Virus record (IMG/VR): IMGVR_UViG_3300038673_000745
Location: 11,367-75,366 of that record
Strand: one strand, 5' to 3'
Length of the DNA stretch: 64,000 nucleotides
DNA from: a virus
Part shown: piece by piece, positions 11,303 through 41,573 of the stretch
Layout of the letters: every line of letters starts with the position of its first letter
Numbering within the stretch: the first letter of the stretch is position 1
The notes under the pieces: model-generated
Databases searched by the model: none
What the model was told of the DNA's origin: nothing
Seen by the model: only the letters and a program-made list of their open reading frames with translations
Position numbers and translations under genes: made by a program

Positions 11303-11743
11303 ATGCCAGTCATTAACATAGTTGGTATCGGACCCTCTGAACAGGAAGCAGCCTTACGGCCAAAACCGGTCCTTTCAACAGATATTCAGACTCTCAATTG
11401 CACAACAAATGGAAAAATCTTCGTAGGAATAGAAATCCTCAAGAACGGGGCTCAATTTGCTCTTCAGATGCTCTTCGACGGAAAACCGGTTGCAATCAAA
11501 GATAATGAAAAAGGTATGAACTCAACCGGAGTGTATACGTCCGGACGATATGAGTCCTATGCAGTCGATCTTCCTTCACGACTGCTCACCGTGCAGAAAG
11601 AACCTCATACGGTCCAATTCCTTATTGGCAAGTATGACCAGGAACAATTCATCGAATCAGGCAGATCTCGGATGTTTGAGATATATGTGACTGGAGAAAC
11701 ACCAAAAATCGATCCAAAGGTAAAGCCAGAGGACCGGGATTAA
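11303..11743 (+). CDS. hypothetical protein
   Basis: 146-aa ORF. Confidence 0.6.
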   Translation: MPVINIVGIGPSEQEAALRPKPVLSTDIQTLNCTTNGKIFVGIEILKNGAQFALQMLFDGKPVAIKDNEKGMNSTGVYTSGRYESYAVDLPSRLLTVQKEPHTVQFLIGKYDQEQFIESGRSRMFEIYVTGETPKIDPKVKPEDRD

Positions 11744-21328: not shown

Positions 21329-21802
21329 ATGGCAAGGCCGAAAAATATAATCTTGGTTCTAGAATTGGAGCGAGATGCGCATAGATTACGGAACAAAGGT
21401 TTGTCGATACGGAAGATAGCCGAAGCACTCACACAGAAAGTTGGTACGAAGATTAATCCTCAGTCGGTCCAGCGTTATTTTGACTCATTCAAAGAGAAAC
21501 CTGAAGTTAAGGAGATCGAGGTACAGGTCCCAACACCTGAAGCTCAAGTCGCACTTGAAATCATCCAGGAACGGGTTACAACTCTCAAAGAAGTGGATGA
21601 GAAGATCCAGAAACTTGATCGGGTGGTAGAATTCGCTGAGAAGGCCGGAGACCACCACTTACTCATCAAAGCTGCAAAAGAACAGGTCAGATACTATGAT
21701 CTGAAAGCAAAACTCACCGGTGACATAGGACCGAACCGGGCAGCATCCGCACCGCAGAACAATATTATGATCTATATACCGGACAATGGCAGAGACAAAT
21801 GA
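21329..21802 (+). CDS. terS: terminase small subunit
   Basis: N-terminal HTH (GLSIRKIAEAL...INPQSVQRY), helical middle, C-terminal NIMIYIPDNGR; overlaps terL. Confidence 0.75.
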   Translation: MARPKNIILVLELERDAHRLRNKGLSIRKIAEALTQKVGTKINPQSVQRYFDSFKEKPEVKEIEVQVPTPEAQVALEIIQERVTTLKEVDEKIQKLDRVVEFAEKAGDHHLLIKAAKEQVRYYDLKAKLTGDIGPNRAASAPQNNIMIYIPDNGRDK

Positions 21803-23216
21803 AGAGATGAGACCTCAGCAGGGTCCACAAGAATTATTCTTAACTACTCCGGCAGATATCGCTATCTATGGAGGATCTGCAGGCTCCGGGAAATCATTTG
21901 CTATCCTCATGGAACCGCTCAGACATATTTTATCCGTAAAAGGGTATGGAGCGGTTATCTTCCGGCGGAACACAACACAGGTCAGAAACGAAGGAGGGTT
22001 ATGGGATACATCAAATGAGATCTATCCACATGTGGGAGCATTTCCCCGAGAAACTACCCTGGAATGGATCTTTCCTCCCTATGCGAATAAAGTTAAGTTT
22101 GCACATCTTGAATATGACAAAACTGTCAATGACTGGCAGGGTTCACAAATAGCCTTTATCGGATTTGACGAACTGACGCATTTTTCGGCAAAACAATTTT
22201 TTTACATGCTTTCTCGTAATCGGTCTGTATGTGGTGTGAAACCATATGTAAGAGCTACTACAAACCCGGACGCTGAATCATGGGTTGCAGAGTTTATTTC
22301 ATGGTGGATTGACCAGGATACAGGCTATCCTATCCCTGAACGAGCAGGAAAGATCCGATGGATGGCCCGTTACAACAATCAGATATTCTGGGATGATACT
22401 CCAGATCTACTCTTTAAACAGGTTCACCTGTTTGTAAAACGTGAACATTTCAGACCAAAATCGGTCACGTTCATCCCGGCAAAACTTGAGGATAACCCAA
22501 TACTCGAATCCAAAAACCCGGATTATCGAGCAAACCTTCTTGCATTAAATCTCGTGGACCGAGAACGATTGTTAGGCGGAAACTGGAAGATTAAACCAAC
22601 ATCCGGAACCATGTTCAAGCGGTCATGGTTTGAGATTGTTGATACCTATCCGACAGAATGTAATATGGTCCGAGCCTGGGATAAGGCCGCAACAGAAGGA
22701 GGAGGAGATTGGACCTGCGGAGTAAAGATAGGAGTGTATCATGGACTAACCTATATCATAGACCTGAAACGTCAACAGGGAAGCCCGTTACAGAATGAGA
22801 ACTTGATAAAACAAACCGCTGATATTGATGGAAGAAATGTTAGGATATTCATGGAACAGGAACCTGGGAGCTCAGGCGTCGATGTTATCGACCATTATTC
22901 CCGCGAAGTTCTCCGGGGCTATACCTTCAAAGGTCATAGGTCAACCGGGAGCAAGGTGGACCGGGCAAAACCGGTATCCGCTCATGTTGAAGCGGGAAAC
23001 GTAAAGATGGTAAAAGGCCACTGGAATGAAGTCATGTTAGATGAACTGGAACGGTTTCCATCCGAAGACCCAAAAGCACATGATGATATTGTTGACGCGT
23101 TAAGTTTGGCTTTTAACCGGTCAACAAGTGTGGCAGAACCCGGTGTTGTATCCCGGACGATATTGAAAAATAAATATTCTGAAGGAATGGGAAACTGGAA
23201 CAAATATAGAGGTTAG
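21786..23216 (+). CDS. terL: terminase large subunit
   Basis: Adenine-binding PQQGPQE, Walker A GGSAGSGKS, Walker B IGFDELT, RATTNP, nuclease RAWD and HDDIVDA. Confidence 0.95.
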   Translation: MAETNEEMRPQQGPQELFLTTPADIAIYGGSAGSGKSFAILMEPLRHILSVKGYGAVIFRRNTTQVRNEGGLWDTSNEIYPHVGAFPRETTLEWIFPPYANKVKFAHLEYDKTVNDWQGSQIAFIGFDELTHFSAKQFFYMLSRNRSVCGVKPYVRATTNPDAESWVAEFISWWIDQDTGYPIPERAGKIRWMARYNNQIFWDDTPDLLFKQVHLFVKREHFRPKSVTFIPAKLEDNPILESKNPDYRANLLALNLVDRERLLGGNWKIKPTSGTMFKRSWFEIVDTYPTECNMVRAWDKAATEGGGDWTCGVKIGVYHGLTYIIDLKRQQGSPLQNENLIKQTADIDGRNVRIFMEQEPGSSGVDVIDHYSREVLRGYTFKGHRSTGSKVDRAKPVSAHVEAGNVKMVKGHWNEVMLDELERFPSEDPKAHDDIVDALSLAFNRSTSVAEPGVVSRTILKNKYSEGMGNWNKYRG

Positions 23217-23219
23217 AAA

Positions 23220-23597
23220 ATGGTAAAAGAAATCTTTGAGAGAGGTAAATTTGTAGGCTATCAATGTGATGCATGTGGGAAATGCTGCAATGCCATAATG
23301 TTTAACGTAAAATGGTTTAAACAACACCGGAAGTATGCAGTAAGAGACATTGTCGGAGTGCATCAAGAACATGGGGTAATAATCCCGTTTACGGAATCGG
23401 GTAAATGCTGTTTCTTAACTGAAGATAACAGATGTGTGGTACATGATACAAAAGACGATGTGTGTAAAGATTTCTTTTGCAACGGGCACGTATCCAAACC
23501 ATTTGCAATGAATTCATGGACAAATATTCACTTTAGATCACCAAATGGGAAATTGTATGCATTGAAATACTTTCTTTACACAAAAGAAGAAGATTAA
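23220..23597 (+). CDS. YkgJ-like cysteine-cluster (Fe-S/Zn) protein
   Basis: CDACGKCC...CCFLTEDNRCVVHDTK..VCKDFFC. Confidence 0.75.
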   Translation: MVKEIFERGKFVGYQCDACGKCCNAIMFNVKWFKQHRKYAVRDIVGVHQEHGVIIPFTESGKCCFLTEDNRCVVHDTKDDVCKDFFCNGHVSKPFAMNSWTNIHFRSPNGKLYALKYFLYTKEED

Positions 23598-24144: not shown

Positions 24145-26166
24145 ATGTCTCATTATCTCATGCTTCTTCGTCTCAGGGATATATCAGCCCACAATTCGCT
24201 TGGAATAATCAGAAAAGGCAAGAAATACATTAAACCGGGTCAGAAGGCACCAAAAGGCGTTCAGTTACACAAAGGACCGAAAGGCGGGACATATTACATT
24301 ATCGAAGACAAACACACGAAATTTGCTGGAAAACATCATGAGCTGGTCCGGAGTAAGGGTGTGACTAAAGATCAATGGGATGAAATCCGGCAGAAATTAA
24401 TGAGTGAAGGAGCGGAATCAGTAGAATTCTTACCTCAGCCGGAATACGGTGGAATCAAAGGGAAGAGATTATACAATATCTATGTTCGACGTGGGGATAC
24501 TGACGAAAAAGTAAATGCCAAACTGAAAGCGAATAAGGACCGGTATGCTGCACGAAAGGCACCAATAGAGAAGATACAAAATACAATTGGTCAGAAGACC
24601 GAAGATGTTTCAGAGATTAAACCGGAAGAAATGAAGATATCGAAAGAGAAGATATCGTATGAAAAAGAGTTAAAAGATGGGTATGGAAAGATTGTTTCTC
24701 AAATGATTTCAACAACTGGAGAAGACCTGTTCAAAAAAATCGTAACTCCATCAGGAAAGTCGTTTTTAAAGCCGAATGATTCTACTATATGGATGAATGT
24801 ATGGGTCCAGCCGAACGGAAAGAAAATGTCTGTATGGGAAGGCGTTACTCCTGAAATTGCACATGAAAGGGTGAGTAATGCTATTACTACAATGAAGAAG
24901 GTTGAGAAGAAAGGAACATCATCGGTTGAAGAACATCGGGACCGGATTGTAAAACTTGCTTCTATGGGAAGATTGGCGGCGATCAGTAAAAATTCGCAGG
25001 CATATCTCGATACACATGGGATTCAATCTCCGTCTGATATTTCAGTAATAAAGACTGAAAACTATCCTGTTGAAGTTTTTTCGTATGATGAACTTCCAAA
25101 ATGGAAACAGAATGAGGATGGATCATGGGAAGTTCCAATCGTTCAGCAGATGAAAGTTTTGAAAACACGTGCTGGAAAGTATGATGGTCCCTTTGATGTT
25201 CATCGTCCGGATTATGTGTATACATCAGGAAAATTAGGATCATATGTTGTCAGAAACTCCGGAAGGAAAACCCAGACATTATATCACAAATCTCCTGAAG
25301 GTGTAGAAACTCCGATGGATACCCATATGAGAGGAAATGACCGGAACTTTTACGAGTATTATGGTTCTCGGTCAACGAATCAGGAAGAGATTGATACCTA
25401 TACGAAGAACTATGCAGAGAAGCAGACGGCAAAAGAGATGCGGAAACAGGCCGCAGCAAAAACGAGAGCACCACGAAAAGTAAAGGATAAGTCGCATCTG
25501 ACATTGTTTAAAACTGTTCCGGAAGGGATACGATACATAAAAGAGAACTGTAAAACTCCAGTGAATGATATTGAAGGGATGTCAATTAACGGGATTCATA
25601 TGTTAGCAGCATGGCTTACAAAAGTAGAATCTGAATTAGGAGGACCGTTACCCCTAGCAGAGATAACCCCTGGGCAGGTGACGAATAAAAGAGCTCTTGC
25701 ACAATACAGTTCTCGGACAAATAAGATCAATCTCCGGAAAGGTGATAAGTTCTGGCAGAATGATGACATCATGATCAAAGCAAATGAATTGTCTGCATCA
25801 CGAAACGCTGATGGAGTTCCATGGTCTCCATGTCCTACAGCAACCGGTACGCTCTGGCATGAATTGGGTCATTGTATAGATGATAAAATAACGAACCGGG
25901 AATTAACTAAAAAAACTGACACGTGGTTTAATAATGCTTCATCTGAAGAGAAAACAAAAGCATATAAATTGTCTCAATATTCTCAACATACAAATTATTT
26001 GTCTTTCAGCGGGGCACATGGGGAATATGTTGCAGAAGCTATATGTGCAATTATGACAAGATCCGAACGTGTAAAGCACATTCCGAAACCGATTCATGAT
26101 CATATTATCGCATCTCTTGCAACCATGAATCTACATCCTGAAAATTTCTCAATCGGAGGATTATAA
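24145..26166 (+). CDS. leader-bearing putative capsid cargo (type A) with C-terminal HExxH zinc metallopeptidase
   Basis: Leader IIRK|G; TLWHELGHCID...LSQYS...EYVAEA. Confidence 0.78.
   Translation: MSHYLMLLRLRDISAHNSLGIIRKGKKYIKPGQKAPKGVQLHKGPKGGTYYIIEDKHTKFAGKHHELVRSKGVTKDQWDEIRQKLMSEGAESVEFLPQPEYGGIKGKRLYNIYVRRGDTDEKVNAKLKANKDRYAARKAPIEKIQNTIGQKTEDVSEIKPEEMKISKEKISYEKELKDGYGKIVSQMISTTGEDLFKKIVTPSGKSFLKPNDSTIWMNVWVQPNGKKMSVWEGVTPEIAHERVSNAITTMKKVEKKGTSSVEEHRDRIVKLASMGRLAAISKNSQAYLDTHGIQSPSDISVIKTENYPVEVFSYDELPKWKQNEDGSWEVPIVQQMKVLKTRAGKYDGPFDVHRPDYVYTSGKLGSYVVRNSGRKTQTLYHKSPEGVETPMDTHMRGNDRNFYEYYGSRSTNQEEIDTYTKNYAEKQTAKEMRKQAAAKTRAPRKVKDKSHLTLFKTVPEGIRYIKENCKTPVNDIEGMSINGIHMLAAWLTKVESELGGPLPLAEITPGQVTNKRALAQYSSRTNKINLRKGDKFWQNDDIMIKANELSASRNADGVPWSPCPTATGTLWHELGHCIDDKITNRELTKKTDTWFNNASSEEKTKAYKLSQYSQHTNYLSFSGAHGEYVAEAICAIMTRSERVKHIPKPIHDHIIASLATMNLHPENFSIGGL
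24166..24425 (+). repeat. 260-bp perfect direct repeat, copy 2
   Basis: Identical to 5644..5903. Confidence 0.92.
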
Positions 26167-26167
26167 T

Positions 26168-26338
26168 ATGACTACACTAAGACCTCCAATATGTTTTGAA
26201 TGTAAATTTCTTCATGGAGATCGTTCCTGTGAAGCGTTCCCTGATGGTATTCCTGATGATATATGGTGGGGAGAGAACGAACATCGAACTGAATATCCCG
26301 GCGATAATGGGTTCAGGTTCTCACCTATCGAGGAATAA
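26168..26338 (+). CDS. small CxxC...C.AFP.GIP partner protein (56 aa, not in ORF track)
   Basis: ICFECKFLHGDRSCEAFPDGIPDDIWWGENEHRTEYPGDNG; paralog of 32806..33108. Confidence 0.8.
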   Translation: MTTLRPPICFECKFLHGDRSCEAFPDGIPDDIWWGENEHRTEYPGDNGFRFSPIEE

Positions 26339-26384
26339 CCTCATCTTATTTCCTGTTTAAGTATTTCAGTCTCAATTTCTCTGT

Positions 26385-27821
26385 ATGAATTATTATCTCA
26401 CGCTTCTTAAGTTGCGTGAAATCTCGTCTATATCTCCTGGGATAATTCAAAAGGCTCGGATATATATCCAAAGAGGAGAACAACCACCAAAAGGAGTGAC
26501 AATCAAAAGAGGTAAGCGTGGTGGTATGTATTATGAAACCGATTCTCATAAGATATCTGGTCCTGCAGATTCAGTATCACAAGAAACTTCGACCAAAAAA
26601 CGCATTATCCATGATCCGGATACAAAAATAAAGCATAAGATTGTTGAAACTGATTTGAAAGAAAATGCAATAAATCACCAGGGAAAAGAGTATCTTGACC
26701 ATAAACTGAAGGTAGGAGATATGGAGGTTGTTGTAAATCATAAAATATACGACGAAGAATCTCCGGTTGAATATCGTATGCTAGTTAAGGATAAATCAGG
26801 GAGTCAGATCACATTAAAACATAACGATTTTGGCAAGTTCATCCGAATGAAAACGATTGCTACATTTCAGAAGGAAGAGGCGATTAAGAAACAGTTCGAA
26901 GATGAGAGTCGGCGTTTAAACGAAGAGCAGGAGAATAATCCAGTATTGCAAGAGATGTTTACAAAACGAAACCGGATGATGAGGGGTATCGGTCCCTACC
27001 GGAGAGAAGTTGAATCTCTTCCGGAAGGGAGTGAAGAACGAGCCAAAGGAGAGGCACGATTAAATGAGTTACAGGAACAGTTGTGGAAATATAATGAGGA
27101 GATTGATAATCATCCGGAAAAGAAGGCATGGGACCGGAAAGAAAAGAACCATTATTATAAATTCAATGTTTTCTTAAATGAGTCATCCAACCGTATACGT
27201 GATTCTATTTTTGAGTATCTTCCAACGGATTCACGGGCAGATCTTACCATCGTACAAGATAACAGTAACCGGAAGATGAAAGGATATCCAAACGAATGTT
27301 CTCCTGAAGATCAGGACCGGATAACAAAACTGGTATCCCAATATCTCCCGTCATCAAATATTGTAAAACGCGATGGATGCACATTAGGGATCCATATTGA
27401 TGTAAATAAAAAATCCAGGAGTTGCTGTTCTGAAGATGTGATTTTTCTTCACGGTTGGGATAATACAAGGGAACATGTAATTATTCATGAATTTGGTCAT
27501 GCACTAGAACACCAGGTAGATGTGATTAAATATAATTCAAGTCAGTTTTTCAGATACCGGACAAAAGACGAGGAGTTAAAACCGTTAAAATCTATAAGTG
27601 AAAACTATGATGATAATGAGTATTACCGGGCAGATGAGTTTTCAGATCCGTATTGTGGGAAAGATTACGGAAAATATGGGTATTCTGAACTGATATCTAT
27701 GGGTCTTCAGAAGTTACACGAAGATCCGGCAAAATTTGCTATGGAAGATGGAGAATACTTTGATATGATAATTTGCTGTTTATACGGTCAGGAGTGGCAC
27801 ATCGATGGCTATAATACTTGA
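26385..27821 (+). CDS. leader-bearing putative capsid cargo (type A) with C-terminal HExxH zinc metallopeptidase
   Basis: Leader IIQK|A then RIYIQRGEQPPKGV...GKRGGMYY; IIHEFGHALE...YCGKDY...SELISMG. Confidence 0.75.
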   Translation: MNYYLTLLKLREISSISPGIIQKARIYIQRGEQPPKGVTIKRGKRGGMYYETDSHKISGPADSVSQETSTKKRIIHDPDTKIKHKIVETDLKENAINHQGKEYLDHKLKVGDMEVVVNHKIYDEESPVEYRMLVKDKSGSQITLKHNDFGKFIRMKTIATFQKEEAIKKQFEDESRRLNEEQENNPVLQEMFTKRNRMMRGIGPYRREVESLPEGSEERAKGEARLNELQEQLWKYNEEIDNHPEKKAWDRKEKNHYYKFNVFLNESSNRIRDSIFEYLPTDSRADLTIVQDNSNRKMKGYPNECSPEDQDRITKLVSQYLPSSNIVKRDGCTLGIHIDVNKKSRSCCSEDVIFLHGWDNTREHVIIHEFGHALEHQVDVIKYNSSQFFRYRTKDEELKPLKSISENYDDNEYYRADEFSDPYCGKDYGKYGYSELISMGLQKLHEDPAKFAMEDGEYFDMIICCLYGQEWHIDGYNT

Positions 27822-28059
27822 TGCGGGGGAAACTTATCCGGCGATTGTTCTCTGCCAAGGAGACCCGATAGTCCAGTTATATCGGAAAAAAATAAAATAT
27901 CATGATAAAACATTCAAACCAGTGGTAAAAGATATTTTAGAGACCTATCATCCGGATACCTATCAATACTCTCCAAATCCAGATTATGAAGCGGCAAAAT
28001 ATGTCTGTGATAAATTGAACCTTCAAGGATTTGAATGCACGGTTAAATTTGTTCAATAA
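27805..28059 (+). CDS. small partner protein downstream of the metallopeptidase cargo
   Basis: 84-aa ORF overlapping the upstream stop, no own promoter motif. Confidence 0.6.
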   Translation: MAIILDAGETYPAIVLCQGDPIVQLYRKKIKYHDKTFKPVVKDILETYHPDTYQYSPNPDYEAAKYVCDKLNLQGFECTVKFVQ

Positions 28060-28099
28060 TATTTCCTGTTTATCTCTTTCTCTCACCCATCAGCGGGCA

Positions 28100-30229
28100 A
28101 TGAAATATCCCCGGCTTCCATCACTGAAACCAATTATCCGGAAAGCTCAATCATTTTTCTCACCGGACCCTCCGGCATACCTGATAAACCCGCTTGTAAA
28201 TGCTGCGGAAGTCATGCAGAAAGCTCATTCAGTAGGATTTGATACCCGGATGCGGGCAAACTGGGAAAAATATTATCTGGCCGATCATAATCTCCGGAAA
28301 CAGATCGATACGATGAAAGAAGAGGAAGCGATGCAGTATCGAAAAGCGATTGCATCAACCTCTATTTACCCAAATATCTATGGAACATACAGAAAAGGGT
28401 TTAACCGCCATGAAAATGACCGGTTGGCACAAAACGCAACCTATGCTCTGTGTGAGAAATCTATCCAGGATTATGTATCAGCTCTTGAATGGACGGTGAA
28501 GGATAGGGACCGGAACGAAGTTACCGACGCAATAGATTTCCTTGAATCACCAAACAAAGACGATACTCTTAATGATATTGTAAAAATGACGTGCCGGGAC
28601 ATTACCCGGTACGATGCTGGTGTCTGGGTTAAAACATTAAACAAACGGGACGAACTTCTTGATTTCAAAGCATATTATGGACCGGAGTTCTGGATAGGAA
28701 TAGATAGGGAGCTGCAGACGGTTGAGAACGAATACGGGATGAAACTCCAGGGGTTCTGGTCCCACGGATATCGAGAGAAATTCTGGCAGCATTCGCAACA
28801 AGGGGTATACATCGAGTTCCAGCCGGATGAGGTCTCATATTTTATGATGTATCCCCGGACTGATACCCCATACGGAACAGACTTTATCAACCATCTCCGA
28901 TGGTATCTTGAGACGCTGTTAGATTCTACAAAAGCCGCAGGGATGACGTTTGCGAATGGAATGAATCCCGGAACAGTCTGGAAACATCCAGATATCTCAT
29001 CATTCCAGCAGTTAGCAGAACGGAAAGCAGAGATCGAGTTAGATCTGATAGGGCCGGATAATTTTGGAGGAATTCTTCATCTCATTGGAAACGAAGAACT
29101 GCAGCATCTGACTCCTACAATGGTGGATATGCAGTGGTTACAGGGCCAGAAGTTCATATCTGAGATTGTTTGGTCGATGTTTGGATTTTCACCCGCTGAT
29201 TTTGGATCGGGAGACATGAACCGGGCAACTGCGTATATTCAGACGAATGTGACGAAATCCAGGATGTTATTCCCGCTCATCTCACTGTTTGAAACTCGGA
29301 TAAACCGAGACATTCTCCCATATCTTCCGGGATACAAAAAGGGCTGGAAATTTGAGTATATTCCGTCTGTCTCGCTTGATGATGACCAGAAACGGTCCAG
29401 TATCAAACAGACTCGGGCAATGACCTATTCAACATTGCTGCAGACCGGGATGGCTCCAAAGCTTGCAGCAAAGATCTCTGAATTGGGAGATGATCTTGCA
29501 ACAAATGAGATAGAAGAGTTGGAAGGACTGGAGAACCAGACGTCTTTATCCGCTATGTTTGGCGGGATGATGGGCGGAGGTCAGGACCAGGGTGATGATT
29601 CCGGGATGGGGGGAGAGGCTGAATCCTATGATGGGACCGATACTATTCAGGGTGTTCAGCAGGCATCCGCTCCGGTCCAGAAAGGAATTGTGAGGAAAGG
29701 ACGGGTTCAGAACGACCAGCAGCGGTTAGATATTTACTTGCATGTTGATGTTGAGGATGTCATTCAAAAAGCACGGGGGAATTTCGGGCATTTAGGCAGA
29801 CCCGGAAAACGTGGGGGGAGTATTTCCAGGTCAATGAGGACCGGAGATAAAAAATTAGATGGGTTAATCAATCAGTTTCATCAGGCTAACAATTCAGCCC
29901 GCGAAGATCTAAAACAGGGAGTACCACGAGATAATCAATCTCCGAAGATTCTTAATCAAATCGACGAATATTTTGAGGCGATATATGGTCCGGTCCTCGA
30001 TGAAGATGAAGACACTGTGGTTCCATACGATAAAACCGGGTGGACTGAAATGGACCGATTATGTGAAAAAATAAATAAAATTCGAGAGGAAATGAATGAT
30101 TACTCTGAAACGACAGGACAGGAGCCTTCACCTGAATTGTATCGCAAGTTGAAGGGTATCTCAAAAGAGGGGTTTCAATTAACACGAAAATTGTATAATA
30201 CATTAGAAGATTCTATTGTATATCCTTGA
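28100..30229 (+). CDS. portal protein with C-terminal extension
   Basis: Position in the head module; LAQNATYALC, FLESPN, DITRYDAGVW, DMQWL..QK..SEIVWSMFG portal-like motifs; start re-assigned to ATG 28100 (31 nt after the promoter motif). Confidence 0.85.
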   Translation: MKYPRLPSLKPIIRKAQSFFSPDPPAYLINPLVNAAEVMQKAHSVGFDTRMRANWEKYYLADHNLRKQIDTMKEEEAMQYRKAIASTSIYPNIYGTYRKGFNRHENDRLAQNATYALCEKSIQDYVSALEWTVKDRDRNEVTDAIDFLESPNKDDTLNDIVKMTCRDITRYDAGVWVKTLNKRDELLDFKAYYGPEFWIGIDRELQTVENEYGMKLQGFWSHGYREKFWQHSQQGVYIEFQPDEVSYFMMYPRTDTPYGTDFINHLRWYLETLLDSTKAAGMTFANGMNPGTVWKHPDISSFQQLAERKAEIELDLIGPDNFGGILHLIGNEELQHLTPTMVDMQWLQGQKFISEIVWSMFGFSPADFGSGDMNRATAYIQTNVTKSRMLFPLISLFETRINRDILPYLPGYKKGWKFEYIPSVSLDDDQKRSSIKQTRAMTYSTLLQTGMAPKLAAKISELGDDLATNEIEELEGLENQTSLSAMFGGMMGGGQDQGDDSGMGGEAESYDGTDTIQGVQQASAPVQKGIVRKGRVQNDQQRLDIYLHVDVEDVIQKARGNFGHLGRPGKRGGSISRSMRTGDKKLDGLINQFHQANNSAREDLKQGVPRDNQSPKILNQIDEYFEAIYGPVLDEDEDTVVPYDKTGWTEMDRLCEKINKIREEMNDYSETTGQEPSPELYRKLKGISKEGFQLTRKLYNTLEDSIVYP

Positions 30230-30271
30230 TTTCATTTCCCATTTATTTATTCATTCATTCTTTTCTTTCTT

Positions 30272-31867
30272 ATGTCTTATCTGATGCTTTTAAGATTACG
30301 CGACATTTCAAATGAGATTCAAAAGGCTAAGAAATATCTAAAATCCGGTGTGCAGCCACCAAAGGGTGTTAAATTACATACCGGTCCGAAAGGTGGAATA
30401 TATTACAATTCAGAGGATCTCCATGCTGTAAGGGGCACAACTCCGAAAAAACGCCTCCCTGCGTTCCGGAAACAGGAAGATGGGTCGGTGATGCATCGGA
30501 CCAAAGCAGGGTATCATGGAGCCGGTGCCTATAAGATCCACCAAAGAGATGATAAGAAATTTCAGTTGTCATTTACACCCGCAAACGGTGGAAAAACAAG
30601 CAGTATTCTACACCATTCGGATATTAAATTCCTAAAACAAAAAGTTGCTGAATTTAAGCGTAGGGATGAGCGGGGACCACTTGAAGACTACGATGTTAAA
30701 TTTGAGAGAGAACGGAGAGATGATGATTTCTCATTAAAACAACTTAGGAGTTTTGAGGGTACATTACTCTCAAAAATTAAAGACCCCAATGAGTCAGATG
30801 AATCTTTCGAGAAACATGATGCATATACCGATGCTGCAACATGGATTGTAGATGTAAACAAACATGGGGGAAATAAACCCGGATTAATCGAATATTTCGA
30901 GGATAAAGTAAAGGAATTTGATGATAAAGGAGATTGGGATAATCATGTGAATGCATATCAGGATGTAGTAGATCTGTTGAAAAATTCAGAAATTGAACCT
31001 AAATCTAAACCTTTAATCAAACCTACATCATCCCCGCTCACATCCGGCGACAAACGCCACGACCCGGATCAAAAGAAAATAGCAACCGGATTAGGGACAA
31101 CCGAGAAAAAGAAAGCAAAAGAAACCGTCGCAGAGTTTGGTGTTGATACTCGTACAAAATTAAAAGAGATAGCCGAGAACGAGACAGGACCGGTTAAGTC
31201 AAAACAGGTTAGATACAAAAAACTGGTAAGCCCGGACCAGGATAAACCTTCTTTATCTAGGCTCCGGGAACATACCCTGAATCACCCAAACATCATCAAA
31301 CTCTCTGCTGAGCAGAGGTCAGAGATTACGCGGGCATTAGATGATATGGAATCGACGTTAAGCCGGTCCAAATCTATTGACTCATTTAAGCGTGCGATAA
31401 CAAGAAAACGAAATCAGATCCAGAAACAACCCGGATATGATATGAGTAATCAGGGTATGTATGAACAAACCCTGAATACGATCATGGGTGCCGGCGACGA
31501 CTGGTATTATCCGGAGAAAGTTGAGAAACCAGTAAAGAACCAAAAAGCAAAGACAAAGACATCATCTCATTCCCTGGCAGAGCTAAGAATCAAACAGGAT
31601 ATGGTTGCAGCTGGATTAGATCCCGAGTCGCATGATATCTCATCGCTGATGGATAAAACCCTAAACTACAAGGAAAACCGGGCAAATATTGCAAAACTGT
31701 TAGGATATTCCTACACTCAGAAAGATAAAAAGGAAGCAACACAACGAGCAGATCATCATCAGTGTATCCAGGCACAGGAACGGTGCGAAGTTCATGGTGA
31801 TTCCGGTGCATGTCTCCAATACACGACAATGGGGTGCCATAAAACCTATGGTCCTCTTGATACGTAA
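30272..31867 (+). CDS. leader-bearing putative capsid cargo (type A), C-terminal function unknown
   Basis: MSYLMLLRLRDISNEIQK|AKKYLKSGVQPPKGVKLHTGPKGGIYY. Confidence 0.75.
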   Translation: MSYLMLLRLRDISNEIQKAKKYLKSGVQPPKGVKLHTGPKGGIYYNSEDLHAVRGTTPKKRLPAFRKQEDGSVMHRTKAGYHGAGAYKIHQRDDKKFQLSFTPANGGKTSSILHHSDIKFLKQKVAEFKRRDERGPLEDYDVKFERERRDDDFSLKQLRSFEGTLLSKIKDPNESDESFEKHDAYTDAATWIVDVNKHGGNKPGLIEYFEDKVKEFDDKGDWDNHVNAYQDVVDLLKNSEIEPKSKPLIKPTSSPLTSGDKRHDPDQKKIATGLGTTEKKKAKETVAEFGVDTRTKLKEIAENETGPVKSKQVRYKKLVSPDQDKPSLSRLREHTLNHPNIIKLSAEQRSEITRALDDMESTLSRSKSIDSFKRAITRKRNQIQKQPGYDMSNQGMYEQTLNTIMGAGDDWYYPEKVEKPVKNQKAKTKTSSHSLAELRIKQDMVAAGLDPESHDISSLMDKTLNYKENRANIAKLLGYSYTQKDKKEATQRADHHQCIQAQERCEVHGDSGACLQYTTMGCHKTYGPLDT

Positions 31868-31902
31868 TTCCTGTATATTATCTTTCACACAAACCTATGT
31901 AT

Positions 31903-32089
31903 TGGCAGGGGAGCAACATGAGCGATGACCCGGCCAAACAGTAAGACTAAGGTTACCTCATTCAACTCCTGTATTTGTCATTGAAACCTGTATTCTGTCC
32001 CCATCGGAAATCTGTGGAAACTGTATCAAGAGTCTCTTTCAATAAAAGGTGCGTGCGGTTGTGTTCTGAAAGGGGTTCCCACACTCCCC
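31903..32089 (+). ncRNA. candidate small RNA
   Basis: Promoter motif at ~31868-31879 with no ATG at the usual distance; 5' GGGGAG (31908) can pair with 3' CTCCCC (32084). Confidence 0.3.
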
Positions 32090-32132
32090 CTTTCCTGTTT
32101 AATATCTTGTTACGATCATTCTATTATATTCA

Positions 32133-32801
32133 ATGGGTATTTTTCTGACTATTCTGATGTTGCAGGATTTGAGAAACGAGATAAAGAAATCTCGCGGGTT
32201 TTATGAGCATAAGGGAAGACCCGGAAAGATAGGCGGGAGTCTGCCACGGAATGCTCTGGATGATACTGAATTACATCCGTTGATACCTATCCGGAAAAGT
32301 GCCGTTGAAGCGGTTATCACGTATGCGAAACCGATTCAGGATCAGGACTTTGAAACTGTTATTGTTATAAATCCTGATACAGATAGTATTGTTTTTAAAA
32401 AGAATGGCCTTGACAGAGAGATTGATATTCTACCAACAGAATGGAAATATTTCAAGCATAACCGAGTCCTTCATAATCACCCTTCTGGAATGACGTTTTC
32501 ATTTGGAGATATCGGTGCAGCATTTCAGCAGTGTGAAGCTGAAGATTGGGTTATTGGACTGACCGGGATATTATATGTGATTCTTCCTCCGGATGGGATG
32601 AAATATTTTCCGCAATCACTTGCAAACAAGGCATTCAAAGAATATAAACGACTCTCTGTAATTGTTAGTACAAACTTAAAGATCCTATCTATGTTAAGTC
32701 ATTTAGACCCAAAAGAAAGGAAAAATACAATTCACAGAAACATTCTGCAAAAGATGAGTTCAGATGGATGGTTTAGATATTATGAAATTGAACTGGAGTG
32801 A
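32133..32801 (+). CDS. leader-bearing putative capsid cargo (type B) with JAB/MPN-like domain
   Basis: EIKK|SRGFYEHKGRPGKIGGSLPR; E...VLHNHPSGMTFSFGDI. Confidence 0.72.
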   Translation: MGIFLTILMLQDLRNEIKKSRGFYEHKGRPGKIGGSLPRNALDDTELHPLIPIRKSAVEAVITYAKPIQDQDFETVIVINPDTDSIVFKKNGLDREIDILPTEWKYFKHNRVLHNHPSGMTFSFGDIGAAFQQCEAEDWVIGLTGILYVILPPDGMKYFPQSLANKAFKEYKRLSVIVSTNLKILSMLSHLDPKERKNTIHRNILQKMSSDGWFRYYEIELE

Positions 32802-32805
32802 TTAA

Positions 32806-33108
32806 ATGACTGAAGATCCTGAGCATTCAGAATTATTCTTTGATTCACCGTGTTTTGATTGTAAGCACTATGATTTTTGGGGTGAGTATGGAGTGTTTAC
32901 AATGAAATGTAAAGCATTTCCCGAGGGTATTCCATTAGAGATATGGACAAATAAAAACACTCATCGAAAATCATATCCGGGAGATACTGGAATACAGTAT
33001 GAAAAACTGAATAAAGAAACTGATGACGAATACAATAGGAAGAAAGAAGAACATGAGAAATCTGCAAAAGAAGGTCTTCTCTGGTTGAAACAAAGGAAGA
33101 ATAAATAA
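32806..33108 (+). CDS. CxxC...C.AFP.GIP partner protein
   Basis: PCFDCKHY...KCKAFPEGIPLEIWTNKNTHRKSYPGDTGI. Confidence 0.8.
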   Translation: MTEDPEHSELFFDSPCFDCKHYDFWGEYGVFTMKCKAFPEGIPLEIWTNKNTHRKSYPGDTGIQYEKLNKETDDEYNRKKEEHEKSAKEGLLWLKQRKNK

Positions 33109-33150: not shown

Positions 33151-33525
33151 ATGGGATATTATTTAGACAAACTCAAAGAAATTGAAGCAAAAATGGAAAT
33201 CAAAAAATCAAAGGGGTTTTATGGTCATAAGGGGAGATTGCATAAGAGAGGGGGAAGTCTTCCCAGAAATGCAGCAAAGAATCCTTCAAATCTGGTTATT
33301 CAAACCCTTAACCCTAAACTGATGAAACTTGCAGATGCAGCGAGTAAAGAATTAACCCGTGATGCATGGCCCTCACAAGCTGAAGATATTGTATTAAGAC
33401 TTGCAGAAAAATTTGATATTGATCCTGATTTAATCGATTTTAATCGTGATTTTGACACTGATGACAATGGGCACAAGTATCATGTAATAAATTTTGATTT
33501 GAAAGAACCAGTATGGTCTGATTGA
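33151..33525 (+). CDS. short leader-bearing putative capsid cargo (type B)
   Basis: EIKK|SKGFYGHKGRLHKRGGSLPR. Confidence 0.72.
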   Translation: MGYYLDKLKEIEAKMEIKKSKGFYGHKGRLHKRGGSLPRNAAKNPSNLVIQTLNPKLMKLADAASKELTRDAWPSQAEDIVLRLAEKFDIDPDLIDFNRDFDTDDNGHKYHVINFDLKEPVWSD

Positions 33526-36196: not shown

Positions 36197-36352
36197 ATGT
36201 CTAATCTCCCTCCTTGTTTTAAGCCGAAATGTAAACCCTGTTCATATTATCCATATTGTGAGAACGCGGTATTAATTAATGATACGGCGTTGAAAATTCA
36301 AGATAAGGATGCAAAAATCGCTCTCCATAAAATGGAACTCAGATATTCATGA
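36197..36352 (+). CDS. small Cys-rich protein (51 aa, not in ORF track)
   Basis: PPCFKPKCKPCSYYPYC; ATGA-coupled to the MuF-like gene. Confidence 0.55.
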   Translation: MSNLPPCFKPKCKPCSYYPYCENAVLINDTALKIQDKDAKIALHKMELRYS

Positions 36353-37236
36353 CCGATCCTGTAGTCCAATTATCAAATCAGTTCATCAAAGAAGTTCTTA
36401 TTGAACTGAGAAACGAGCGGTCTGATCTAAAAAACCGGATACGATACGCATGTGATTCGGCAAATTCTGATGATGAAATTGAGATCTTAATTCTCGGGAC
36501 CGGAGAACTCACTCAAAAGAGACTTCGAAAGATTTCAGAGCAACATATTGAATATATGTATCTGGAATCAGTAACCAGAGCGATATCTGATATATCTACT
36601 ACGGATATTTATCGTCCGACTGCAGTCCCCGCGTATATCACAGCACAGGACCGGGAGGTTGGGGCGGTTGATTCAATAAATTACGTTATGTCGCTACTCA
36701 CTGCAACGATTCAGGCCAGAAACGAAAGTATCAAAAAGATCATATTTAGCCGGTCCAAGGGCATTACAAAACTCATTGACGATGTAGAATCGGAGATAAA
36801 TAAGATCTGGATCCCACGGATTGAAACCGATATCAGGATAGGATGTAATCATGCCTGGAACGCTGCGTACTATACCCGGTTGTCTGGATACGGGGCGTTT
36901 AAGAAATGGGTATCTGTATCAGATCATGATGAGATGAACGGGGTTATTGTTCAGGCAAATGAACCGTTTAAGATTCCTGAATACCCGGACCCAAATAATC
37001 TTGCTCAAAAAGTCCCAGGATGTGAGATGCTTTACCCTGGAGATGTTTCTGGAAATCCTGATAGGCGACACCTGGAGAAATGTTTCTGCCGGTTGGTATC
37101 AGTATCACAAGGACCGGTTACGTTCGTAAACGTAACAGAAGAAAATCTTACGTCTGCGAACGAACCGGACGAACGTAATGGAGATGAACCTGAAGAAAAG
37201 AAACGAGGCCGGAAAAAGAAACAGGAGGATGAATGA
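36349..37236 (+). CDS. MuF / SPP1 gp7-like minor head protein
   Basis: RIETDIRIGCNHAWN...KKWVS..DHDEMNG...EPF...MLYPGD...CFCRL, resembling the MuF C-terminal signature. Confidence 0.7.
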   Translation: MTDPVVQLSNQFIKEVLIELRNERSDLKNRIRYACDSANSDDEIEILILGTGELTQKRLRKISEQHIEYMYLESVTRAISDISTTDIYRPTAVPAYITAQDREVGAVDSINYVMSLLTATIQARNESIKKIIFSRSKGITKLIDDVESEINKIWIPRIETDIRIGCNHAWNAAYYTRLSGYGAFKKWVSVSDHDEMNGVIVQANEPFKIPEYPDPNNLAQKVPGCEMLYPGDVSGNPDRRHLEKCFCRLVSVSQGPVTFVNVTEENLTSANEPDERNGDEPEEKKRGRKKKQEDE

Positions 37237-37520: not shown

Positions 37521-38849
37521 GTGAACTACCCCTCCCTAAAATCCTAACGGATTTTTGAGGAAGGGGCTTCCTGCTTCATGGATCGATGCTTTCTTACGTA
37601 AGTAAGGAAAGTCTGACTTAATCTCCACAGGCTCACCGGGCAGTTCCTGCCCTGTATTTTGCTTCATCAAAGCAAACATTTTGATATTTTTTGCAGCATT
37701 GACATCTCTGTCATGAACAGATCCACAATCAGGGCAGACCCATTCTCTTTCTTTCAGAGTTAATCCTTTGTTATGGTATCCACACTTGCTGCATATTTTA
37801 GATGACGGATCAAACCTACCGACAGTTAACAAGGTCTTCCCGAACTTCTCACATTTGTATGTGAGCATAGATCGGAACTCTGACCAAGAAGCATCTGCAA
37901 TATGTTTAGCCAGTTTATGATTCTTTAGCATACCTGATACATTCAGATCTTCAATTGCAATTGCTTGGTTCTCGCTAACAAGTTTAAAAGAAAGTTTGTG
38001 CAAGAAGTCTGATCTCTGGTTTGCTATGTCCTCATGACACTTTGCTAACTTGCTGATTGCTTTTTTACGGTTGTTAGATCCTTTTACTTTTCTGGATACT
38101 GACTGCTGTAGTCTCTTGAGTTTTGCTGAAGTCTTTTTTAGAACCCTTGAGTTTTCAACCTTTGTACCATCTGACAGGATTGCAAAATGAGTTAAACCTA
38201 CATCAATACCAATCGTTGTTTCAGGAGTGAACTGAACCTTTTCAGATTTTGTTTCTCTATCATCGACAAGTATGGATACATAGTAAGATCCAACCGCGTT
38301 TCGTGACACTGTACAGGTCTTAATCTCACCTGTAAAGTGTCTATGCAGTTTACATTTCACTTTACCTATCTTCGGAAGTTGAACAGATCCTTTGATCCAA
38401 TCTACTTTCACGCTTTGAGGGAACTGGAATGATTGAACTGGGTTCTTCTTTGATTTGAATCTTGGAAACCCTTTCTTTTCTCTGAAGAATTTGGTAAATG
38501 CATTATCAAGGTTGCGTGAAGCCATCTGTAATGCTTGTGAATGGACCTCAGATAGAAAAGGATACTCAAGTTTCAAAGCAGGTAACATCTTGTTTAGAGC
38601 AAAACAACTCAATGTAGATTTGTGCTCAGCGTAATGTTTAATCTTCTTCTCAAGAAACAAATTGTACACAAACCTACAAGCACCAATATGTTTCTCAATA
38701 CTCTCTTTCTGAATAGTATTGGGATACAACCTATACTTGTAGGCTTGTAACATGGGTATCTATTTATACTTACAGATATTTATATTTATGTATAAGCAGC
38801 ATTCATCTCCTCCCTGATACCGAGGAAGGAGTCTTCTGCTGCATTTCAG
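37521..38849 (-). mobile_element. IS200/IS605-family TnpB-only element (IS1341-like)
   Basis: Right end ...GTAGTTCAC, subterminal hairpins at both ends, TTTAT target motif at the left end, no target duplication; exact removal restores the host ORF. Confidence 0.88.
37536..38753 (-). CDS. tnpB: RNA-guided endonuclease TnpB
   Basis: [16 protein letters not shown], Ruv[24 protein letters not shown]...[16 protein letters not shown]. Confidence 0.96.
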
Positions 38850-40280: not shown

Positions 40281-41573
40281 ATGATGTTTAGAAAAGCCAC
40301 CAAGCAAGATGAAGCACTCGGGCGGTCATTCTGGACTGGTTTCAATGTAGAGCCAGGTTCAGAAGTCAACCTGTACGAAATCAAAAAGGCAATGAGTGCA
40401 GCGATTAGCGCATCTCATGTAAAAGGACAGTCTACGATTGTTGCAGGTATCGCTGTTGATGCAATTGATCCGAACCTTATTCGGAAATCAATCCTGAACG
40501 GATGGTCACAGAAACAGTATGCTCAGGAGATTGAGAAGTCCCTGACCGGGTTTGTTGATAACCTGAACACTATCAAGAAAGCCGATCTGACCAAAGCAGG
40601 ATGGACCGAAGATACCATCAAGAAAGCAGCAGATAGCACGTCAAACCTGATGCATAGCATCTACGACCAGGATATCACCGAACTGTTCATGAGACCGCTT
40701 CCGGTCCAGGCACTTATCGGAAAAGAAGCGAACATGGGAGCGGTTGCTCTCTGGGATGCTATCCCGGCAGGCGGCGCTGGTTCCGCATCGTATGGACCTG
40801 AATCTCCAAACCTTGTCGAGTCCGACATGGACCCTGCCCGGAGATCTGCCGATATCAAGATCGCATGGACGACTGCAGCGGTTACTCAGTTTGCTCAGTA
40901 TGCCGGTATGGCACAGGTGCCGACCCGTGACCTGATGAGCATCGAGCTCCTCGCTCATACTGAAATGCTTAAACAGCTTCGTGAGCGGAGAACCCTTGGT
41001 GTTACTTCATCCTATTCTGCTGATCCAGCATTTGCACCAGCCGGACAGTATGAACCAAAAGGACTGTATGAACTTATCACCGCAAATACCGGTGACCCGA
41101 ACTATGTCACCGCTGGAGCTGGTGTTGATACCTGGGATGAACTCAATCCGCTCATCAAGGATTCAAACCGGATGATGAGACGTGACGGACTTATACCGAA
41201 CTGTTCAATCTGTGACTTCTCAACCTATGATATCATCTGTCAGGGACTTGAGCAGTATGTTCGGTATGCACAGCAGCCGGACCAATCCTGGGGTGTTGAG
41301 AATATCACGATCAACCTTCCAGGGGGCGGAAAGGTCCCCGTTGTTCCATCTATCCACCTTCCGACGACATCAGGCACTAATGGCAGCTTCTTCCTGCTTG
41401 ACCTGAACCGGATCAAGTACCGGGTTCTCTACCCAGAGGTGTTTACTGAGCTTGCACCGTCCACCAACCCAACCAAGCGGTTTACGATTTCATTCGCAGA
41501 AACCCTGATTGATAAGTCTGATGTTGATGGAACCAGCTCTCTCCAGGGAGGAGTGTTCGGTATTGCAATTTGA
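40281..41573 (+). CDS. major capsid protein (HK97 fold, N-terminal delta domain)
   Basis: Follows the protease, GGAGGTGA RBS, 430 aa; high G/C at third positions; GSFFLLDL...YPEVFTEL C-terminal strands. Confidence 0.88.
   Translation: MMFRKATKQDEALGRSFWTGFNVEPGSEVNLYEIKKAMSAAISASHVKGQSTIVAGIAVDAIDPNLIRKSILNGWSQKQYAQEIEKSLTGFVDNLNTIKKADLTKAGWTEDTIKKAADSTSNLMHSIYDQDITELFMRPLPVQALIGKEANMGAVALWDAIPAGGAGSASYGPESPNLVESDMDPARRSADIKIAWTTAAVTQFAQYAGMAQVPTRDLMSIELLAHTEMLKQLRERRTLGVTSSYSADPAFAPAGQYEPKGLYELITANTGDPNYVTAGAGVDTWDELNPLIKDSNRMMRRDGLIPNCSICDFSTYDIICQGLEQYVRYAQQPDQSWGVENITINLPGGGKVPVVPSIHLPTTSGTNGSFFLLDLNRIKYRVLYPEVFTELAPSTNPTKRFTISFAETLIDKSDVDGTSSLQGGVFGIAI

Follow-up and report, generated by a model that had tools for sequence, protein, structure and literature searches.

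The window analysed here is a stretch of 64,000 nucleotides of viral DNA (positions 11,367 to 75,366 of IMG/VR virus record IMGVR_UViG_3300038673_000745), and the region that concerns us is two copies of a conserved two-gene cassette in which a gene ending in an effector domain is followed by the gene for a small partner protein of the family referred to here as C3H. The features of this region are the following:

24145..26166, + strand: cargo protein P0001, 673 aa; shared N-terminal leader, then C-terminal gluzincin-type metallopeptidase domain
26168..26338, + strand: small C3H partner P0002, 56 aa; CFEC at nt 26192-26203, CEAFPDGIP at 26228-26254, HRTEYPGDNG at 26282-26311
26385..27821, + strand: cargo protein P0003, 478 aa; same leader as P0001, then C-terminal zincin of a second family
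27805..28059, + strand: P0004, 84-aa ORFan; overlaps the end of P0003 by 17 nt; GGAGTGG upstream
28031..30229, + strand: portal protein; PF04860, E 2.3e-19; phrog_2662
32133..32801, + strand: cargo protein P0005, 222 aa; type-B leader (GHKGRPGKIGGS), then JAB/MPN+ domain
32806..33108, + strand: small C3H partner P0006, 100 aa; CFDC at nt 32851-32862, CKAFPEGIP at 32908-32934, HRKSYPGDTG at 32962-32991

The stop codon of P0001 (TAA) is separated by one base from the ATG of P0002, which has a GGAGGA 7 nt 5' of it, and the gap between P0005 and P0006 is 4 nt. The ribosome-binding sites of the partners sit within the 3' ends of the upstream genes, an arrangement that fits coupled translation. P0002 and P0006 are paralogs, with 42% of 55 aligned residues identical (E 9e-14); both match phrog_33375 (E 6.7e-4 and 2e-8, respectively), and the family profile, when searched against the virus record of P0002, matched P0002 at E 7.6e-26. 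P0006 consists of a core (aa 10-72, AF2 model with pLDDT 88) and a Lys/Glu-rich tail. The first-pass annotation of this DNA had reported an HExxH cargo gene at 24145 with a 56-aa gene 1 nt downstream, a paralog of that small protein after the JAB cargo at 32133 and, more generally, a small partner gene coupled to each effector; both ORFs of the first pair are where it had placed them, the paralog is present at 32806, and coupled small genes were seen at 26168, 27805 and 32806. It had also described the partners as leaderless, and the N-terminal leader of the neighbouring cargo genes is indeed missing from P0002 and P0006.

The HExxH motif that assigns P0001 to the gluzincin-type metallopeptidases is HELGH (aa 572-576, nt 25858-25872), and its third-ligand Glu is E627 in EYVAEA (aa 627-632, nt 26023-26040), which aligns with the sole invariant downstream Glu (ExxAE) of the zincin family. 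The protein can be aligned with 27 partner-associated zincin domains in which H, E, H and E are all invariant, and HExxH is invariant across 30 aligned sequences of the family. Pfam gave no match for P0001 or P0003, and relatives of the zincin gave only sub-threshold matches, to Peptidase_M57, Mx1, ATLF, M10 and M90. P0003 has HEFGH at aa 368-372 (nt 27486-27500) with its third-ligand Glu in SELISMG; it matches phrog_33618 (E 1.3e-16) and phrog_19443, annotated as 'minor head protein' (E 7.9e-10), and in bacterial phages its relatives occur as the C-terminal part of a MuF minor head protein of 698 aa (locus L203). The different 84-aa gene that had been noticed overlapping this second HExxH cargo is P0004, and the overlap is the 17 nt given above. 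P0004 has no relative among 5.8 billion proteins and none in Pfam or PHROG searches, so its coding status is read from its position alone; neither the acidic ORF behind the related L203 zincin nor the 'EYPxGT' family of small ORFs downstream of JAB proteins is related to it. P0004 is a possible second kind of partner.

P0005 has a complete JAMM motif (E ... HxH ... S-x2-D), made up of E74 in FETVIV (aa 73-78) and of H114, H116, S123 and D126 in HNHPSGMTFSFGD (aa 114-126, nt 32472-32510). An alignment of 31 JAB sequences shows E, H, H, P, S and D to be invariant, and the loop from HxH to Ser has 6 residues in P0005 compared with the canonical 7. The AF2 model (pLDDT 91.9) has the MPN fold, and its top Foldseek matches are nearly all JAB proteins (RadC 2qlc, PfJAMM1 5ld9/5lda, AF2198, BRISC, CSN5 and Cap3), those to RadC and PfJAMM1 having a probability of 0.97-1.00 with E only about 4e-3. 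Pfam, its JAB models (RadC PF04002, Prok-JAB) included, gave no match for P0005 at E up to 0.1, and the RadC model was matched by one of 74 relatives (E 0.0046). The complete motif and the predicted fold bear out the earlier description of 32133 as a JAB-like cargo. The further idea that the enzyme might target SAMP conjugates found no specific support, since HNHP is a RadC-clade signature and RadC is the best structural match, level with PfJAMM1; the RadC clade has been judged unlikely to hold a ubiquitin tail (Iyer et al., PMC5512222). The catalytic motifs of the zincin and the JAB domain are intact, so both enzymes can be presumed active and in need of control.

Both cassettes sit in the head and packaging block, with the terminase at 21786, the portal at 28031 and a capsid protein at 40281, which places the effector-type zinc hydrolases of the first-pass annotation among the head genes of a head-tailed virus. 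The layout is that of MuF toxins: a variable C-terminal enzyme, a small ORF (<150 aa) directly downstream and a head module. No match to PF04233 (MuF) was found in P0001, P0003 or P0005, which thus lack the N-terminal MuF domain; a separate, weakly MuF-like gene lies at 36349-37236 of the window. In bacterial phages the same effector domains are the C-terminus of MuF/gp7-type minor head proteins, whereas the archaeal virus uses short N-terminal leaders. In phage T4, a short N-terminal leader directs Alt and the internal proteins into the head, from which they are ejected with the DNA; we liken the window leaders to this capsid-targeting sequence, although T4 cargo is not known to come with a coupled small partner gene.

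The genes that precede the partner in other viruses were classified at the 74 IMG/VR loci having an upstream ORF, and 73 of these ORFs end in a zincin (31), a JAB domain (36) or an ADP-ribosyltransferase (6), with a Phage_Mu_F domain present on 53 of the 74. The pairing of effector and partner, repeated in 73/74 loci, is far beyond chance. The earlier claim that one partner family serves two folds can therefore be widened, as C3H follows zincin, JAB and also ADP-ribosyltransferase domains elsewhere. Cassettes are also found in cultured phages (Flavobacterium phage lotta8-2 gp028/gp029 and Brevibacillus phage Jenst gp075/gp077) and in archaeal proviruses (L227, L234 and L249). A tblastn search of cultured phages with the window's own partner found Brevibacillus and Flavobacterium phages only, the same search with a typical C3H member found no match, and a viral scan with P0224 returned ordinary zincin-plus-partner loci only. 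No recognisable effector lies upstream in 22 of 71 genomic loci. As a control we used 80 MuF genes picked by DNA motif, irrespective of their C-terminus; the partner follows two of them, both with a C-terminal zincin, and none of the about 58 short MuF genes in the same sample. The partner thus accompanies particular effector domains and not MuF, and we rejected the notion that it is a generic MuF neighbour. A DNA-pattern scan indicated that about 1 in 5 phage proteins with the same JAB domain have a C3H partner, while about 80% have other small ORFs in its place. When effector type is mapped on the partner tree, the label changes 8 times versus 26 in shuffles (0/200 shuffles were as low), which shows that partner subfamilies co-segregate with effector type. 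In ART-type loci no ORF other than the partner separates the toxin from the scaffold gene. Partner subfamilies thus cluster by effector type, but one conserved family spans three folds.

The C3H family comprises 6379 cluster representatives, mostly viral and unnamed, and neither Pfam nor NCBIfam contains a family for its single-domain members. Every member has the pattern C-x2-C...C...H, even where the upstream gene encodes an ADP-ribosyltransferase, and the best reading is that these residues bind a metal of the partner's own, probably zinc. Searching PDB sequences with the C3H profile gave bL36 as best match (E 0.1). With the partner model, Foldseek found no PDB match below E about 3; bL36 and an [FeFe]-hydrogenase region with a 3Cys-1His cluster ranked best. 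VIA-align, run over 48,161 chains, returned none with a Z of 2 or higher, and a BFVD search returned uncharacterised family members only. The bL36 zinc ribbon shares with C3H the arrangement C-x2-C-x(n)-C...H and a beta-hairpin after the first knuckle. Compared with bL36, HiPIP and the small subunit of 4-hydroxyphenylacetate decarboxylase, C3H differs in its spacing to the His and in having His, not Cys, as fourth ligand, and none of the three is a significant match for a single C3H domain by the searches just described. Multi-repeat members clear the whole-protein cut-off of the Pfam HiPIP model (24.2 and 26.9 bits versus 22), which is passed only by summing over repeats, and one of them matches NF033716 (E 4.5e-7). 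A HiPIP-type [4Fe-4S] identity was rejected because the invariant residues are three Cys and one His, not four Cys, and there is no HiPIP structural match; a DNA-binding zinc ribbon was rejected because the domain is mildly acidic, with a mean net charge of about -3.

The invariance of the motif also bears on the cysteine switch proposed in the first-pass annotation, in which a partner Cys would ligate the catalytic zinc of the zincin or JAB enzyme as the pro-domain Cys of matrix metalloproteases does. Both window effectors are zinc hydrolases with a cysteine-rich partner encoded directly downstream, which speaks for such a switch; however, the same C3H is kept after metal-free ADP-ribosyltransferase domains, and all of its three Cys and its single His belong to an invariant pattern resembling the bL36 zinc site, with no conserved Cys to spare. 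Since C3H is also paired with a non-metal enzyme, we consider the switch very improbable.

Fused forms of C3H numbered 198 at E up to 1e-5, including zincin-C3H and MuF-JAB-C3H. Among the 121 fused forms examined, C3H is at the N-terminus of a larger enzyme in 96, its fusion mates being ART, Zeta toxin, topoisomerase IB, XkdF/ClpP-type prohead protease, GNAT/SprT-like, JAB and zincin domains; in 21 it is C-terminal and comes immediately behind a zincin or MuF-JAB. Both head-module neighbours are represented, upstream (zincin-C3Hx2, MuF-JAB-C3Hx2) and downstream (C3H-XkdF, C3H-ClpP), and locus L061 carries the array [JAB][C3H-...-JAB][C3H-ART][239 aa][MuF]. Tandem and multi-repeat forms also occur, with four genes in L014, 3 repeats in P0013 and 4 in P0030. 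Finally, intact orphan copies are present in Methanosarcinales chromosomes, among cellular genes and with no virus nearby.

Because of these fusions and orphans, we keep a loading role beside the immunity-like reading that we set out further below. As a loading handle or adaptor, C3H would be a protein-binding module of the procapsid interior that tethers effectors to the scaffold, prohead protease or portal. The tether would be covalent where C3H forms the N-terminus of a cargo enzyme and non-covalent where a separate C3H protein binds the product of the upstream effector gene. C3H would then serve trafficking, as MuF and the leaders of the window virus do, and would be no inhibitor. Its N-terminal position in most of the fusions examined, with swappable C-terminal enzymes, is that of trafficking domains in polymorphic toxins, and the fusions to both flanking head-module genes and the L061 array point the same way. 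However, most of the family consists of free, cargo-less proteins of 55-100 aa, MuF-fused effectors already have a capsid address, the orphans are intact in virus-free surroundings, and N-terminal fusions could be mere joins to whatever gene comes downstream; we regard a loading handle as unlikely.

The domains of the cassette are also those of polyvalent proteins (PMC5512222), which have a zincin-like MPTase with HExxH and a Glu on a later helix, and in which RadC-type JAB, ART and MuF are interchangeable domains of proteins injected with DNA. By its fusions the C3H domain acts like a promiscuous polyvalent-protein domain; the cassette differs in that its domains are mostly split over two coupled genes. 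Searching the full text of Iyer, Burroughs, Anand, de Souza and Aravind 2017 (PMC5512222) turned up no cysteine-rich, zinc-ribbon or iron-sulfur partner domain. If the cassette were a split polyvalent protein, C3H would be a junction or processing module between polyprotein effector domains, the neighbouring zincin or JAB would cut at this module or close to it, and a free C3H gene would be a split-off piece with no inhibitory role. Natural fusions exist on either side of C3H, and the zincins of polyvalent proteins are predicted autoproteolytic processors (Iyer et al. 2017, PMC5512222). Against this, ART-type upstream genes contain no peptidase, the free C3H forms dominate and are conserved, and no conserved cleavage motif was identified, so we find this origin improbable.

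MuF toxins provide the precedent for the immunity-like reading. Their neutralisation through binding by small adjacent ORFs has been shown experimentally (PMC11699363), and Jamet et al. 2017 (PMC5576092) give a small downstream ORF for 89% of MuF toxin genes. In the Bxa locus, the MuF-ART toxin Bxa is held inactive by Bsi, BAH is also described, and BACSTE_RS09440 is non-protective (PMC11699363); Apk2/Tis1 is a tested MuF toxin pair as cited in the same paper. We liken Bxa/Bsi to the C3H cassette by description, not by sequence. In MuF toxins and in the cassette alike, the enzyme is C-terminal and variable, its carrier is head-associated, genes for portal, scaffold and protease lie close by, and a small ORF comes directly after it; the kinds of enzyme also overlap (a metallopeptidase is present in about 20% of MuF toxins, and ARTs are common). 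The window effectors differ in having short shared leaders instead of a MuF domain and an archaeal host, and the C3H partner differs from MuF immunity proteins in being one conserved, putative metal-binding family over three effector folds and not fold-specific. With these pairs at hand, the toxin-immunity comparison made in the first-pass annotation is reasonable as an analogy.

Our best reading, to which we give a probability of roughly 45%, is that the partner is an immunity-like binding partner that keeps the effector in check. The zincin (24145) and the RadC-like JAB domain (32133) would be virion-delivered effector domains, and the partner would be translated in step with its effector, bind the catalytic domain and, in the producing cell, keep the effector inactive (or stable), like Bsi on Bxa and Tis1 on Apk2. 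Loading of the effector would leave the partner behind or destroy it, and the effector would then act once it has been ejected into the following host. The metal bound by the invariant Cys and His would be the partner's own, with no switch on the effector zinc. We count in favour of this reading the paralogy and coupling of the partners, the size of the family and its invariant residues, the intact catalytic motifs of the effectors, the 73/74 loci, the cassettes of cultured phages and archaeal proviruses, the MuF control, the tree clustering, the position in ART loci, the tandem and multi-repeat forms, the orphan chromosomal copies and the MuF toxin precedent. Intact copies in host-lineage chromosomes are expected behaviour for orphan immunity genes. 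Several observations count against it: one family with three unrelated folds is unusual for an immunity protein that plugs an active site, the C3H core motif is far more conserved than immunity proteins usually are, covalent toxin-immunity fusions such as C3H has are not typical, the partner is missing from about 80% of same-JAB proteins, and a recognisable upstream effector is missing from the 22/71 loci. The first-pass annotation had itself named occurrence of the family away from adjacent effectors as speaking against its proposal, and such occurrence is what the Methanosarcinales orphans and the fusions to many other enzymes present. Complex prediction for the JAB domain, the partner and two Zn gave a score of 0.00 ('no answer') and weighs neither way.

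Phage-delivered effectors such as MuF toxins and polyvalent proteins are a known class, in which only two pairs have been worked out experimentally, neither with a protease or JAB domain. The analysis defines a compact and very widespread cassette of effector domain and C3H partner, which occurs in phages of many bacterial phyla and spans the divide between bacterial and archaeal viruses; the C3H family has no Pfam or NCBIfam model and is absent from the two key comparative papers on phage-delivered effectors. As the cassette is free of MuF in the window virus, it helps to tell apart what the partner does and what the carrier does. It is possible, though on balance we doubt it, that C3H founds a pan-viral superfamily, as yet uncatalogued, whose members pair with virion-delivered effectors of three or more folds, both in archaeal viruses and in phages of a dozen bacterial phyla; in that case C3H would be either a general immunity scaffold (SUKH/SuFu-like, with the Methanosarcinales orphans protecting the host from injected viral enzymes) or a new non-MuF trafficking handle that loads enzymes into capsids. 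The orphan host copies may represent a host defence against injected viral enzymes, and knowing which of the two roles C3H has, general inhibition or loading, would provide an annotation for thousands of phage genes now listed as hypothetical.

The cassette formed by an effector gene and a small partner gene was confirmed, and it extends well past the window. All ORF positions proposed in the first-pass annotation were recovered, and the two cysteine proteins of the window proved to be the paralogs that it had taken them for (42% identity, E 9e-14); both match phrog_33375. We refer to this partner as C3H (C-x2-C...C...H). The window encodes a large terminase, a portal and a major capsid protein of the SU10 type and therefore belongs to a head-tailed virus, whose full IMG/VR record comprises 75,366 bp.

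ORFs of the window
21786-23216, large terminase
23220-23597, 125-aa cysteine-rich protein directly 3' of the terminase, with a CxxCxxCC putative zinc/iron-chelating domain (PF03692, E 1.9e-6)
24145-26166, zincin effector P0001, with the motifs HELGH (aa 572-576) and EYVAEA (aa 627-632)
26168-26338, 56-aa C3H partner, starting 1 base past the P0001 TAA, with GGAGGA within the end of P0001
26385-27821, second zincin effector P0003, with HEFGH at aa 368-372
27805-28059, 84-aa ORF with a 17-nt overlap with P0003
28031-30229, portal (PF04860, E 2.3e-19)
32133-32801, JAB effector P0005, with Glu74 and HNHPSGMTFSFGD at aa 114-126
32806-33108, 100-aa C3H partner, starting 4 nt past the P0005 TGA
36349-37236, 295-aa protein, weakly matched by 'head morphogenesis' PHROGs (E 0.006-0.008), with a C-terminal ...EKCFCRL motif
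37536-38753, minus strand, TnpB-like ORF of 405 aa between the probable MuF-like gene and the protease/scaffold gene
40281-41573, major capsid protein, SU10-type

The products of several genes around the portal, P0001, P0003 and P0005 among them, have an N-terminal leader in common. The motif G-H-x-G-R-x-x-K-x-G-G-S is found in the C-terminal extension of the portal (29650-30229), in a 124-aa ORF (33151-33525) and at the N-terminus of the JAB cargo, and a related RGRFASGS-like stretch stands at the start of two bacterial zincin-C3H fusions (P0023, P0052). The 295-aa product is probably the MuF-like protein of this virus, encoded separately from the effectors; its EKCFCRL motif resembles the MuF signature H-x-x-C-R-C. 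The head block is interrupted by the TnpB-like ORF, and the 125-aa PF03692 protein of the packaging block has no kinship to the C3H family. A search of 5.8 billion proteins found no homologue of the 84-aa ORF.

P0005 carries a JAB/MPN+ domain, although no Pfam model reaches it. When it was aligned with C-terminal domains from 30 phage proteins, the residues E, H, H, P, S and D did not vary. The AlphaFold2 model built from this alignment (pLDDT 91.9) gave as best PDB matches RadC, Pyrococcus JAMM1 (alone and with SAMP2), AF2198, CSN5, AMSH and Cap3. A SAMP or ubiquitin-like target had been suggested for this enzyme, which we consider a guess only, as the domain is RadC-like (its HNHP signature is of the RadC-clade type) and Iyer et al. 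doubted that the RadC clade binds a ubiquitin tail (PMC5512222). In P0001, aligned with 27 partner-associated domains, H, E, H and a later E are invariant, the pattern that the same authors give for zincin-like MPTases in polyvalent proteins (PMC5512222). P0003 represents a second family of zincins, phrog_33618; its members in bacterial phages form the end of a 698-aa MuF minor head protein.

The profile of the partner family was made from an alignment of the two partners of the window and one close relative, and 6379 cluster representatives among 1.84 billion match it (E up to 0.001). Free proteins of 55-100 aa make up the majority, and 2-4 tandem copies are common; C-x2-C, the third Cys in C-x-A-F-P-x-G-I-P, one His and the Asp of a GDxG motif are invariant. 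Repeats within one polypeptide number three in P0013 and P0162 and four in P0030, and one locus (L014:4878-5983) has a single MuF-zincin gene followed by four C3H genes in tandem. Neither Pfam nor NCBIfam has a model for the family, it carries no name in the ESM Atlas, where most members are viral, and it is absent from both key comparative papers on MuF toxins and polyvalent proteins. For the core, AlphaFold2 gave a confident model (pLDDT 88), for which structure searches found no significant neighbour; the domain comes closest to the C3H zinc ribbon of bL36 (E 0.1), and multi-repeat members also give weak HiPIP-like matches.

The gene neighborhoods of the partner were compared in 80 IMG/VR loci drawn with the family alignment. 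Samples of 80 loci such as this one are ordered by closeness to the window's protein and are not random, and the genes in all fetched loci come from simple ORF calls, which may be wrong in GC-rich DNA. An upstream ORF was recognisable in 74; in 36 it ends in an HNHP-type JAB, in 31 in an HExxH domain set about 80-110 residues before the C-terminus and in 6 in an ADP-ribosyltransferase (ART), with 1 ambiguous, and Phage_Mu_F was found on 53 of these ORFs. Thus the proposal that one partner family serves different folds holds for zincin and JAB and extends to ART. The usual next gene downstream is a scaffold or head maturation protease. Among cultured phages, the MuF-zincin gp028 of Flavobacterium phage lotta8-2 overlaps its partner gp029, and Brevibacillus phage Jenst has the zincin virion protein gp075 outside the head module with its partner, gp077, one gene on. 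A second scan, limited to one genome per species, showed members in a dozen or more bacterial phyla, in Methanosarcinales and in Methanolobus, with a JAB or HExxH gene upstream in 47 of the 71 loci classified and no recognisable effector there in 22; in three archaeal proviruses a portal-like gene is followed by a JAB protein and then by the partner with a 4-nt overlap. The expectation that the partner always lies beside an effector stood for nearly all of the 74 IMG/VR loci but not for Methanosarcinales chromosomes, where intact copies occur among purely cellular genes, with no viral gene within 5 kb and no adjacent effector.

Orphan C3H copies
L268:4968-5474, two tandem C3H between an AMP-binding ligase and NikR
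L216:4899-5174, one C3H adjoining a cation-efflux gene (zinc transporter type)
L257:4962-6075, two C3H between a sodium:solute symporter and a solute-binding protein

The partner could also have been a companion of MuF itself. We drew 80 MuF genes, whatever their C-terminus, with a DNA motif for the signature P-x-H-P-N-C-R-C; a partner follows just two of them, each with a zincin placed about 85 residues before its end, and none of the roughly 58 short MuF genes or the other long MuF extensions. We therefore rejected this candidate: the partner tracks the effector domain and not MuF, with which the window is consistent because its cassettes lie away from the weakly MuF-like gene that starts at 36349. 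The dependence is one-sided, since only 14 of about 74 viral ORFs with the same JAB domain have the partner; for most of the others, the next gene is a small overlapping ORF from another family. One such family (about 50-64 aa, motif D..EYPxGT) directly follows the JAB gene in seven loci of phages without C3H (L297, L315, L326, L332, L340, L357, L367), and further small families follow the same domain, for example in L324, L330 and L353. A tree of 67 partners groups by upstream effector type, with 8 label changes compared with a mean of 26 after shuffling. Such clustering would fit inheritance as a cassette and perhaps co-adaptation of partner with effector type; shared ancestry alone could also produce it.

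The reading that we favor, tentatively and with a probability of roughly 0.45, is that the partner may act as an immunity-like inhibitor of the effector; where it lies, its coupling to the effector gene, its arrays and its orphan copies are all as expected of toxin-immunity pairs. Products of small ORFs adjacent to MuF toxin genes have been shown to bind and inhibit the toxin, Bsi acting on the ART toxin Bxa and Tis1 on Apk2 (PMC11699363). In the ART-type C3H loci, no ORF other than the C3H gene stands between toxin and scaffold gene. The mechanism first proposed, a cysteine switch in which a partner Cys sits on the catalytic zinc of the effector, is unlikely because the same invariant C3H set pairs with the metal-free ART and the partner has no spare conserved Cys. 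Fused forms (198 at E up to 1e-5) show that the domain is promiscuous: C3H is N-terminal in 96 of the 121 examined, ahead of enzymes such as ART, Zeta toxin, topoisomerase IB, XkdF- or ClpP-type prohead protease, a GNAT/SprT-like giant, JAB or zincin, and C-terminal in 21, such as MuF-JAB-C3Hx2 (P0018) and zincin-C3Hx2 (P0023, P0052). These fusions would suit a loading handle or adaptor, as would an array in an IMG/VR phage (L061:2479-9290): a JAB-ended protein of 823 aa, a C3H-...-JAB of 537 aa as the ORF was called (515 aa as database protein P0164), a C3H-ART of 347 aa, an ORF of 239 aa and a short MuF of 300 aa. The fusions may equally represent an inhibitor gene joined to whichever gene stands downstream. 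The intact orphan copies among cellular genes of Methanosarcinales may likewise point away from an inhibitor or towards another role. We consider a handle less likely than an inhibitor.

The cassette is best regarded as a variant form of the strategy known from MuF toxins or polyvalent proteins. In the archaeal virus of the window, leaders replace MuF, and the effectors are joined by an uncatalogued family of C3H partners with a putative immunity-like role.
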